A DNA stretch of 64,000 bases, taken from positions 104,866,158 through 104,930,157 of the forward strand of contig NC_057718.1 in the NCBI RefSeq assembly GCF_004010195.1. The letters are read 5' to 3'. Below are positions 39,336 to 49,520 of this stretch, in pieces. The DNA comes from Chiloscyllium plagiosum. Lineage: Eukaryota. Each line of letters starts with the position of its first letter. Position 1 is the first letter of the stretch. Made by a program: the position numbers and the translations under genes. Under the pieces are notes generated by a model. The model saw only the letters and a program-made list of their open reading frames with translations. It was not told the DNA's origin and searched no databases.

Positions 39336-40797
39336 GTTAAATTTTAGTACCACTTGTGCTGAAGAATTCTATAACTTTCCTATTTATGTTTCCAGCATTA
39401 ATGCAATATTTATGATCCCGTTACCAATTTGACAATCTACACACACCATTTTGCTAGATTTGAACTCTTCAAGATCCTGTGAACCTTTTCTGCCCCTTTG
39501 CTTAGCTATAACTCATCTTCCATAAGAAAATGATCAAAAATAATCCCGCTGCAGTTTAAACAATTGAGAGATTCATTGTAATACCTTACCTTTCTATTCA
39601 TTACCTCTCAGCTGCAAAATCCTAACTCCACTCGTGTTTCATACCTCTGATCTCACTTCTGATAGTGCATTTAGACTGCAAATGCAAAATCGACGCAAAG
39701 TTGTTTTGCTTCACATTGTCTCAGCAGTCAGCATTAACTGAATCTAAACTTCAGGGTTTGTAGCTGTCCTGACACTTTAGCAAAGGCAGATAACATTCCC
39801 TGAAGCAAGCACTCCAACTCATTCTTGACTCAGTGGAGGCCTTAACTTCAAATTCACAAAATACAATTAGAAAAGTGCAGAGCAGAAAACAATCAGCAAT
39901 GTTATAATCTGTAGTTTAAATGAACCTCAAAGACACATTCTTGCCCCGCCTCTGCGCATCGAAAACATTGAAGCCCACGAGGCAGGTACATTCTCTGTTA
40001 GACTGATTATTCAACAAGCAGCTTTATCCTAACTGACATCTGTACATATCTCATATTTCAGAAGATCTGACCCATAAAACATTATAAAATACCATGGGTG
40101 ATGTTCTCAAACATCTGGAGACTTTTGCTGGCTCAATTCTCAATTTCTATCACAATACTACAAATTACTAATTAATAAGTCTTCATAATGCATTTGGAGA
40201 TACAGCATGTCAGTGCAGTTTTGTAGTAATCCACACTGGCAAGACGAACTTTGCATCCACAATTCTCAGATCCTAATTTCCCTATTACACAAACAGAAGT
40301 CAAATAACCTCTGAAGAGTCATCTAGACTCGAAACATTAGCTTGCTCTCTCTCCATGGATGCTGTCTGACCCGGTATGATCTCCAGCATTTGTTTTCAGT
40401 ACTCTCCCTCAGCAAGTGGTTAAAACTATTAGGTGAACTGTTCTCAACTACTGTTGCATAGCCCCTCATATTCAAATATAAAGCTTGGCTTTGGGACCTT
40501 CGTACAGGTTGCTCGTCAAACTGCAATTAAAAGCAAAAGAAACTGATGCAGAGTTTTAAAACGTTAATATTTGTATGTTGTGGTTCTGTTCGCCGAGCTG
40601 GGAATGTGTGTTGTGGACGTTTCGTCCCCTGTCTAGGTGACATCCTCAGTGCTTGGGAGCCTCCTGTGAAGCGCTTCTGTGTTGGTTCTTCCAGCATTTA
40701 TAGTGGTTTGTGGCTATCCTGACACTTTAGCAAAGGCAGATAACCACTATAAATGCCGGAGGAAACAACACAGAAGCGCTTCACAGGAGGCTCCCAA

Positions 40798-40837
40798 GCA
40801 CTGAGGATGTCCCCCAGACAGGGGACGAAACGTCTGC
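40798..40837 (+). ncRNA. Minimal hammerhead ribozyme motif, PLE family C (diverged minus copy 40613-40652)
   Basis: gca-CTGAGGA-t-gtcccc-cagaca-ggggac-GAAAC-GTC-tgc. Confidence 0.75.
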
Positions 40838-41006
40838 AACACAAATTCCCAGCTCGGCGAACAGAACCACAACAACGAGCACCTGAGCTACAAATCTTCT
40901 CAAACTTTGAATATTTGTATGTATCAATACTTTAAAACAAACAAAATCAATAAAATTGATTGATTTGCTGTTCAAGTGCCAACATTTCAAAATCAGCAAC
41001 ACTTAC

Positions 41007-42965
41007 TTGTGACAGAGGTTCTTCAAATGAACTTGTACTTTTAATTGTCATTTCTTCTCCAATGTGGTGAACAGGAGTAGAGTCTACCCAGCCAGTTAAA
41101 TGTTTGACAGTTGAAAGGGCAACTTCTGTCCTGCTGCATTGGCTAATTTCTTCTTTAAAGGCACCAACAGACTGTTCTTCACCAAAGGATGCCCACGATG
41201 TACTTTCAGCCACCGAATCCCCAAAAGCATTCCACTCAGTGTCTTGCTCAGTTGTAAAGTCTTCATCACTTTTGAATCCTGCAAACTCAGACTCATTGTT
41301 ACCTTCCTGAATAGACCCAAATTCTCCAAAATCCTCATCATCTGTCTTTGTAATTGTGGTGGTAGTTCCATGCTCACTAAACTCCAGGCCACTTTCATGA
41401 TAAACAGCAAGTTCTGTTTGAACATCCTTTTCTGCTGGAGATTCAGAAAAATTAGCAAATGTTTGTAGGGAGTCAGCACCCATACTGCCAAAGTCACCAA
41501 ATTCTTCTTTAACACCAGCTTCCTGAAATGTAGCAAACTCTTCTGTTGCCAACTTTGAGGATGTTTTGTTGTCAGAGTTTCTACAATGCATATTTACTGT
41601 TCCAACATCATCCACAGCAGCGGAATTCAACACTGGACTAAAAGCAGCAAAATCAACATCGCCTAAGCACTTGCTTCTTGAAATTTCAAAGTGATCTGAC
41701 TCAATTCCTTCTGTCCTTTGCCCATCAGTCACCAGTGGCTCACCATTGACTGCATGGTCTTGCTCAATCATGGAGGTTCTATGTGCAACACTGTCTGAAC
41801 AAACACCAACATCTTCCTCATTCGGAGTACAGATTTCCAAATCTATTTCTGCTCCAGCTTGCTTTTCACTATATGATTGATCTGCCCTTAATTGAACCTC
41901 TGAACTTTCTATGTTAATGGCTTCTTTCACTATTCCCAAAAATTCATGAACTGGTTGTTCAGCATTTTGGTTCTGAATTTCATTATGCTCCATTGGTTTT
42001 GATGAACTCCAGTCATGATTAGGAAAGCTTGTGTCAGCTGAAGTACTACGGTCAGAGGAGTGGCACTGGGTGTGTTCTATGGCTGCATTTGTCCCAGTCC
42101 CACCCATGCCATTTGAAGCAACTTTCAGCTTATCACCAGCCACTGTAAAGTTCGAACTGACTTGAACATCTGGTAGTTCCCCCAAAGCTGAATGATTGCC
42201 AACATTATGTTCTCCTTTGAGTGGCACTTTGCTGATAGTAGATAGAGATATACTTGATGTTTCTCCTGTTAAATCAGGTTCTTTAACATTTGAAAATGCG
42301 GAGAACTCTGTAAAGTCCTCAATTGGTCCAGGCATGGACTCTGACCAGAGATTGGAAATGTGAGCATTTGTAGCTGTTTGTGCATTTTGATCATTTGTGT
42401 TGACTATACTTTCTATTCCCTGAGAGTGTGTTCTATCATTTGTTGGGTACCCATTTGTCAGAATTTCTGGATTGGCCTTTTTATCATTGCTGAACTCTTC
42501 TGATTCTAAATCTATTGCACGAGCATCCTTGGCCAGACTATCAAATCTAGCAGCTACTTCTGTCAGTTTCATGGATTCCATTGTTTGTTCTGTTGCTGTA
42601 CAATCAAAAACATTTATTGAAGGTTTTGATAGAATTACATCCTTATCAGTACTTATAGTCATGTCATTTAACATTTCTTCTGCAGGTCTGGCGAAATCTG
42701 AAAGAAAGACTTTGCCTTTACTGGTACTTGCTGAATGAAAGTCAGCAAACCCATCTGGATGACTGGAATATGCATGGCCAGGCACAAAATGGTTCGGGGG
42801 CATAAAATTCCCATGGTGATCTTCTAAGTCAAAGTCAGAATAATCAAGCGTTGAACTACCAACTCCTGAAAAACCACCAAATTCACCAAACTCATCATCA
42901 ATTTCAGTTCCATCGTCTAGTGGCGGAGGTGAAGAAGAATACATCCTAATCACATCTGGCTCCAT
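41007..42965 (-). CDS. AFTPH: AFTPH exon 2 coding part (653 codons; exon starts at 42990)
   Basis: Acceptor cttctctttag| at 42991; ATG in aacatcATGG context; donor CAA|GTAAGT at 41006. Acidic protein with repeated FGEF/FGDF/FxxF gamma-ear-type motifs and WNAF/WASF motifs. Confidence 0.98.
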
Positions 42966-47709: not shown

Positions 47710-49520
47710 TGAGCCTGACGTCGATGGTGGGCAAGTTGTTGCAGGGAATGCTGAGGGATACGATGTACATGTATTTGGAAAGACAAGGATTAGGGATAGT
47801 CAACATGACTGCATGGGAAGTCATGTCTCACATTCTTGATTGAATTTTTTGAAGTAACAGAGGATTAATGAGGGTAGAGCATTAGATGTGATCTAGATGG
47901 ACTTCAGTAAGGCGTTCGACAAGGTTCCCCATGTGTTTTAAAAAATTCTCAAGGTTTTCACCACATTCCATTGCTTGGCCCAATACATGTGTTACATTAT
48001 GATTCACACATGTATTGGGACATAATTTTAACCCTTTCACCACACCATGTGAGACTGGTGAGCAAGGTTAGATCTCACGGATTACAGGGAGAACTGGCCA
48101 TTTGGATACAGAACTGGCTCGAAGATAGAAGACAGAGGGTGGTGGAAGGTTATTTTTCAGTTTGGAGGCCTGTGACCAGTGGAGCGCCACAAGGATCGGT
48201 GCTGGACCTACTACTTTTTGTCATTTATATAAATGGATGTGACGATAGCAGATGACACCAGAATTGGAGGTGTAGTAGACAGTGAAGATGATTACCTCAG
48301 ATTACAACCGGATCTTTATCAAAGGGGCCAATGGACAGAGGAATGGCAGATGGATTTTAATGCAGAAAAAATGTGAAATGTTGCATTTGGGAACACAAAT
48401 TGTCGCAGGACCGAGATACTTTATGGTAAGATCCTAGGGAGTGTTGCTGAACAAAGATACCTTAGAGGCATGTTCATAGCTCCTTGAAAGTAGAGCTGCA
48501 GGTAGATAGCATAGTGAAGGTGGCATTGGGTATGCTTACCTTTATTGGTCAGAGCATTGAGTAGGAAAATCGACTTTTCGGGCAAAAGCTCTTCATCAGG
48601 AGAGGAAGAGAACTTCTTCAAGGTAGGCATCCTTGCAAGAGGATTCGCAGTAAGGTTAAAATCAACTAGGCAAAAAAATGAGGACTGTAGATGCTGGAAA
48701 TCAGAGTCTAGATTAGAGCATTGAGTACAGGAGTTGGGAGGTCATGTTGCAGCCGTATAGAATGATGGTCAGGCCACTTTTGGCCAATTCTGGTCTCCTT
48801 CCTATTGGAAAGATGTTGTGAAACTTGAAAGGGTTCAAAAAAGATTTACAAAGATGTTGCCAGGGTTGGCAGATTTGAGTTATAGGGAGAGGCTTGGAAA
48901 TCAGAGTCTAGATTAGAGCATTGAGTACAGGAGTTGGGAGGTCATGTTGCAGCCGTATAGAATGATGGTCAGGCCACTTTTGGAATGTTGCATGCAATTC
49001 TGGTCTCCTTCCTATTGGAAAGATGTTGTGAAACTTGAAAGGGTTCAAAAAAGATTTACAAGGATGTTGCCAGGGTTGGCAGATTTGAGTTATAGGGAGA
49101 GGCTGAACAGGCTGGGGATATTTTCCCTGGAGTGGAGGCTGAAGGGTGACCTTATAGAGGTTTATAAAATCAGGAGGGGCATGAATAGGATAAACAGACA
49201 AAGTTGTTGGAGTCCAGAACAAGAGGGCATAGGTTTAGGGTGAGGGAGGAAAAGATATAAAAGAAACCTAAGGGGCAAAGTTTTCACGCAGAGGGTGGTG
49301 CGTGTATGGAATGAGCTGCCAGAGAAATTGGTGGAGGCTGGTGCAATTGCAACATTTAAAAGACATCTGGATACGTATATGAATAGGAAGGGTTTGGAGG
49401 AATATGGTCCAGGTGCTGGCAAGTGGAACTAAATTAGATTTGGATATCTGGTCGGCATGGACAGGTTGGACCGAAGGGTCTGTCTCCTTGCTGTACATCT
49501 CTGCGACTCTATGACTCAGA
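47710..49520 (+). mobile_element. CR1 LINE RT/3' region with nested PLE terminus (~48564-48714) and an internal tandem duplication
   Basis: VSLTSMVGKLL, WRPVTSGAPQGSVL, VRPLLECCMQFWSP fragments; AGAGCATTGAGTA duplicated around the nested insert. Confidence 0.9.

Follow-up and report, generated by a model that had tools for sequence, protein, structure and literature searches.

In Chiloscyllium plagiosum, the centre of a head-to-head Penelope-like element (PLE) insertion was, as our analysis supports, copied with local host sequence as the template; it shows microhomology at each end and is not the family consensus. Within the window, by which we mean the whole 64,000-nucleotide stretch of contig NC_057718.1 that was analysed, the captured patch including its junction homologies (40705..40744, plus strand; flank match E 7e-15) matches 39755-39794 at 38/40 nt in the same orientation, with 950 bp from start to start. 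This correspondence had been noticed in a sequence-only reading of the same DNA and was confirmed here: within ±2 kb the best match to the 33-nt spacer is 31/33, compared to 21/33 for the best of 40 shuffles. The same reading had called for a genome-wide search and held that its interpretation would fall if the copied segment belonged to the family consensus or to a common dispersed repeat. When the 3.56-Gb assembly was searched with up to 2 mismatches allowed, the 28-nt core occurred in 2 places, the donor and the spacer, and controls in 0, and the spacer matched none of the other loci among the 184 collected, which rules out both the consensus and the dispersed repeat.

Anatomy of the focal insertion and its donor

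The 13-bp target site duplication (TSD) and the ~133-bp inverted arms described in the sequence-only reading were both borne out by the window sequence. The two TSD copies (40566..40578 and 40910..40922, plus strand) are identical at 13/13 positions, and the left copy shares its last 3 nt with the inverted arm; the TSD also overlaps the element continuation by 2 nt. The inverted arm (40576..40708, minus strand), a pLTR without a tail, and the direct arm (40742..40874, plus strand), a pLTR comprising the end of the GIY-YIG ORF, a hammerhead and the start of the next ORF, are 133 nt each and complementary at 125/133. The inverted arm ends at arm position 133, with family sequence reaching 2-3 nt further into the spacer, and the 35-nt PLE tail (40875..40909, plus strand) is present on one arm only, beyond the direct arm.

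A minimal hammerhead core is predicted in the inverted arm by motif scan and arm comparison (40620..40649, minus strand), and a minimal core with its cleavage triplet is predicted in the direct arm by motif scan (40801..40834, plus strand). The earlier claim that the arms carry hammerhead motifs holds for the core motif, found in both, and not for a match in Rfam, which returned no hammerhead for the focal arms and only sub-threshold miRNA hairpin matches that we attribute to the palindrome. Compared with the family majority across the 133 nt common to both arms, and leaving aside one variant that both carry, 6 positions differ in the inverted arm and 2 in the direct arm. Comparison of the arms places two private changes immediately 3' of the cleavage triplet in the inverted-arm core, and one direct-arm change leaves hammerhead stem II fully paired. 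The direct-arm hammerhead has the features given in the consulted portion of PMC4209133: an extra nucleotide between 9 and 10.1, G10.1-C11.1 and palindromic 15.2-16.2. The centre excepted, the focal copy is a typical family member.

The donor (39755..39794, plus strand) is unique host sequence, presumably intronic, lying 771 bp from the target site. It was covered by contigs of three organism-A runs with zero differences inside, and it joins its unique flanks without a break in three independent runs. Both donor and insertion lie downstream of a large minus-strand coding exon (41007..42965), an open frame whose atlas look-alikes are named aftiphilin (score 0.79, a lead only); we take the host gene to be aftiphilin-like. 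A strong splice-donor-like site is found on the minus strand at 39590, ~165 bp beyond the donor segment, where no coding frame reaches it. That the donor is a coding exon was ruled out, as no open frame runs through it to this site.

The sequence-only reading had further claimed microhomology at both junctions. It is present at both ends, though on the left it spans 6-7 nt and not 4; on the right it spans 3 nt, and the non-element part of the patch is ~30 nt. A further 6-nt element-like motif lies just inside the right junction. Within 64 kb, the donor and the spacer are the only places where this 6-nt motif and the 7-nt motif co-occur, against 0 places in 80 kb of other flanks; these counts are of descriptive value only, the pair having been picked post hoc.

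Several other features of the window were recorded. About 170 bp to the left of the focal insertion, 40312-40394 belongs to a different repeat of very high copy number, present as a fragment in which a hammerhead-like stretch was identified by eye; contig depth peaks and loose contig ends occur there. Between 39400 and 40338, the organism-A runs differ at 6-7 of 940 unique bases, and organism A may represent a separate population or sister species. Further away, 48695-49104 holds a two-copy 210-bp tandem repeat overlapping an open frame that presumably represents a LINE RT fragment.

The element family and the frequency of local capture

A genome search showed that the focal arms belong to a multi-copy family. 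Longer copies carry an upstream ORF that closes with a GIY-YIG motif, CxxC lying between the motif halves, and downstream the start of the next ORF; this assignment is a by-eye reading of the longer copies against PMC8557442, the focal copy being non-coding, and the endonuclease fragment found no match in Pfam or PDB searches. An ATG at hammerhead stem II opens a frame that continues into the ORF N-terminus, and tandem pLTR-ORF junctions were found in six-locus series L145-L150. Judged by its structure, endonuclease motif and ribozyme motif, the focal unit is an EN+ PLE (Penelope/Poseidon) insertion. The clade name Poseidon is our assumption for the family, taken from its structure.

The collected family hairpins show the established PLE arrangement: in 114/128 one arm extends to the tail end, the only arm to carry it, and the other reaches position 141 at most. 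The short arm stops at 133-134 in 62/128 hairpins, arm ends overall cluster at positions 133-135 and 161/168, and the modal TSD length is 13 bp (33/128). A MITE-like family with fixed arms and a variable loop was ruled out, as the position of the seam shifts continuously across 150 nt or more; the apparently fixed hairpin length results from query bias. Two further candidates were rejected. Extra templated bases at the outer junctions, flagged in 6 cases, proved to be merely unaligned tail ends, and arms of discordant subfamily, considered as proof of two RNAs, were flagged in 5/92 cases, with L137 alone being clear. Near-identical seams were seen 0.7 kb apart (C3:63495780 and C3:63496508) and 19 kb apart (C5:31433447 and C5:31452666) and are probably local duplications.

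This family seldom captures local DNA. A first search pattern gave 201 hairpin centres, 190 of them inspected, and a second gave 228, with 84 inspected; one being shared, 273 places were judged by eye, probable duplicates on unplaced contigs included. Only the focal insertion showed local host capture (1/273, ~0.4%), which rules out capture as a routine of the focal family. Nearly all remaining centres are element-to-element joins, and 6 of the 273, the focal one included, hold at least 20 nt of other sequence. When 106 unique head-to-head pairs were tested by script against their 1.3-5-kb flanks, the focal insertion was likewise the only one to return a flank match (E 7e-15; next 0.05); several long 'foreign' runs in the scripted census were N gaps or nested pairs. 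No local host donor was found for 12 candidate loci searched with 5-15-kb flanks; the 4 other long foreign centres of the first pattern likewise have none within 15 kb. The centre at C16:15.67 Mb derives from the element's ORF (313 places), as does that at C17:40.32 Mb; the centre at C3:52.68 Mb is transduced DNA of another locus, that at C4:63.74 Mb was judged RT-coding only by eye, and that at C9:63050295-63050359 (L120:4896-4960) holds ~20 nt absent from the collected element sequence and from the surrounding 15 kb.

Three further local captures came from a second hammerhead-bearing family, in palindromes on C9, the chromosome of the focal insertion (L182:4385-4753, L183:4502-4897 and L184:4276-4643), with TSDs of 13-14 bp and centres of 92, 161 and 105 nt. 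In each of them the centre copies, in inverted orientation, DNA found ~0.2-1.05 kb leftward of the insertion. Two of the centres match nothing in the other collected loci, and the 161-nt centre partly overlaps a repeat, its full-length match being local. These cases were picked and not sampled, so that they show recurrence and yield no rate. In all four captures, focal and second-family, the donor is found to the left of the insertion; for the three in which a tail-less side is defined, left is that side. The earlier suggestion that such elements can capture local host sequence is thus sustained by the focal centre and these three cases, but not as a regular event, given one capture among 273 focal-family centres.

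Timing and mechanism of the patch

The age of the patch was gauged by comparing donor/centre identity with arm/arm identity in the same insertion. The two values are 38/40 and 125/133 for the focal insertion (95.0 vs 94.0%, the former reflecting 2 substitutions), and 83/92 and 85/94 (90.2 vs 90.4%), 157/161 and 74/77 (97.5 vs 96.1%), and 102/105 and 112/117 (97.1 vs 95.7%) for the second family. Agreement in 4/4 cases, each resting on few substitutions, favours capture of the centre at or soon after integration. A contig from organism B, which is diverged by a few percent, bridges the right junction of the focal insertion and reaches 32 letters into the element; as this junction is common to a related organism, we infer that the insertion is old and real. 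Bridging was called at 31 letters, a length reached at the right junction in one run only, and other flank-junction contigs extend only 18-23 letters into the element. The spacer is spanned by none of the contigs listed for the organism-A and organism-B runs, and none of the RNA runs on record is listed as carrying the focal sequence.

The focal unit is a Penelope/Poseidon head-to-head insertion with nearby intron DNA copied into its seam, and it appears probable to us that this copy was made at integration, as a patch primed by microhomology that linked two cDNAs of separate priming. An endonuclease would make a 13-nt staggered cut, and from each DNA end a cDNA would be primed at one or other of the two start sites on either side of the tail, the two cDNAs stopping close to one shared point. 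One cDNA end would then pair by a few bases with DNA ~0.8 kb off, extend by ~30 nt and release, after which the released end would anneal to the other cDNA end via the newly gained 6-7-nt homology, and the gap would be filled and ligated. The likeliest writer of the patch would be a Pol theta-like host polymerase acting on exposed flank DNA, with the element's RT as an alternative. The sequence-only reading had proposed that synthesis switched from the element to a nearby template and back; the templated local copy agrees with this, but the scheme is probably too simple, since the family anatomy points to the bridging of two separately primed cDNAs. According to the part of PMC11167929 consulted, the RT of Anolis Poseidon has two start sites bracketing the tail, and both strands are cleaved and extended, a pattern that the tail asymmetry, end clusters and 13-bp TSD of our family fit. 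It counts against the patch joining two cDNAs that the focal capture is single in its family and that its arm ends are near-symmetric, as cleavage of a cruciform tip could also leave them; yet 16/68 ordinary seams have arm ends within 5 nt.

The same near-symmetry would be expected if an ordinary palindrome had later broken at its centre, by cruciform or hairpin cleavage, and been patched from the nearby sequence most similar to the two broken ends. Palindromes are fragile sites, and on either side the donor has element-like sequence, the 7-nt and 6-nt motifs, chosen post hoc. Repair of this kind should give patches younger than the insertion, however, whereas the patch has diverged from its donor about as much as arm from arm in all four captures, and the seam is already a place where two ends need joining at integration, so we regard a post-insertion origin as improbable. 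Seams of this family also include jumps to the element's own ORF, which lends some weight to the idea that the element's RT jumped to a nascent host transcript, the minus-strand pre-mRNA, copied ~30 nt and then joined the other arm. A left-primed cDNA needs a minus-strand template, which the pre-mRNA would supply, the donor lying downstream of the insertion in the gene, and 'extra template' junctions made by the R2 RT are described in the accessible part of PMC11371274. The orientation is nevertheless non-discriminating, since either arm may have copied either strand; with the other three patches inverted and all four donors on the left, one exposed DNA strand suffices without RNA. Moreover, RT jumps usually take RNA 3' ends, a criterion applied in that portion of PMC11371274, and the donor is internal. 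A jump to nascent RNA appears quite unlikely to us on these grounds.

An assembly artefact, or a copy made in the reverse direction, from the element centre out into 39755-39794, has next to no credence with us. Palindromes are hard for assemblers, several centres contain N gaps, and contig support across the spacer is missing from those listed, but a mis-assembled copy should be identical, whereas donor and spacer differ at 2/40 sites, and the donor is continuous with its unique flanks in each of the three runs. Reverse polarity, for its part, would leave the origin of the spacer unexplained, there being no further copy in the genome.

Separate priming of the two cDNAs is supported by 5' transduction by the PLE pLTR, which was observed at L139-L144 (C3:52.68 Mb, C10:56.27 Mb, C12:55.25 Mb, C48:9.88 Mb, C96147 and C99998). 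The transduction source, L142-L144, has at least 1.3 kb of upstream sequence in common among its loci, which are possibly duplicates or haplotypes. The three daughters, L139-L141, on other chromosomes, carry ~60, 170 and 620 bp of the source's upstream host DNA at 97-99% likeness, and in them the inverted arm is element sequence and the direct arm is 5'-transduced host DNA. Arms taken from different templates are impossible for one folding-back cDNA, suggesting that some units consist of two separately primed cDNAs. Extending this to Penelope palindromes in general is a tentative step that we find possible though doubtful: both cut ends would copy separate RNAs, the seam would arise by end-joining, and ends without homology would borrow from one exposed flank strand on the tail-less side. 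Were this strand the exposed top strand of the left flank, copying by the right-hand cDNA would give a direct patch, as in the focal insertion, and copying by the left-hand cDNA an inverted one, as in the other three (n = 4).

Relation to known systems and significance

As described in the portions of PMC8557442, PMC3846280 and PMC11167929 consulted, EN+ Penelope/Poseidon units consist of an inverted 5'-truncated copy, a one-sided 30-40-bp tail and a TSD. The focal insertion resembles them in its head-to-head arms, its 35-nt one-sided tail, its TSD of an AT-rich target, the minimal hammerhead of its pLTR and the GIY-YIG with CxxC of its family, but differs from the units in those accounts in that its seam is host DNA from 950 bp off and not element sequence. 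Host DNA captured between pLTRs is reported in PMC3846280, in a passage that does not map it to the insertion flank and that attributes the palindromes to self-priming. Among the papers that a search of part of the literature could reach, none reports locally templated seams in PLE insertions.

Closer parallels come from other retrotransposons. Templated insertions of L1, as presented in the sections consulted of 10.1101/2024.08.27.596794 and PMC11702581, similarly take up a short genomic template (<250 bp) at integration. Those sections of 10.1101/2024.08.27.596794 count 22 such insertions among ~3,600 somatic L1 copies, a rate near that of the focal family (1/273), and place the templates typically within 15 bp; the focal donor is 771 bp off, which counts against the patch joining two cDNAs. 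The focal patch lies between two copies of one element segment, whereas L1 twin priming inverts an upstream segment. The snap-back and extra-template 5' junctions of R2 outlined in PMC11371274, where the 3' end of the cDNA primes further synthesis, mostly with the cDNA itself and more rarely with nearby target DNA as template, are likewise comparable, except that R2 joins one cDNA to the target and the focal insertion joins two cDNA ends together. Minimal priming, short extension, dissociation and re-annealing by gained microhomology are shared with the Pol theta (MMEJ) templated insertions summarized in the corresponding section of PMC12426944; those inserts are usually <25 bp and come from the break flanks, and the greater length of the focal patch counts against the model. 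The focal patch is a real, rare scar of a kind known from other retrotransposons (L1, R2).

The role of such captures in transporting host DNA is minor, with ~30 intronic bases moved, ~0.4% of inspected centres involved and nothing to indicate a function. As to how PLEs build their inverted units and complete integration, the part of PMC11167929 consulted leaves the later steps unvalidated. A patch of flank DNA shows that the centre began as two free ends, open to extension by a polymerase and close to the target site. The value of capture lies in a pooled set rather than in the single copy: patches pooled genome-wide would test dual priming against fold-back and would give the reach and side of the exposed DNA. 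If the strand rule of dual priming is true, the seams record the order of PLE integration steps and argue against self-priming.
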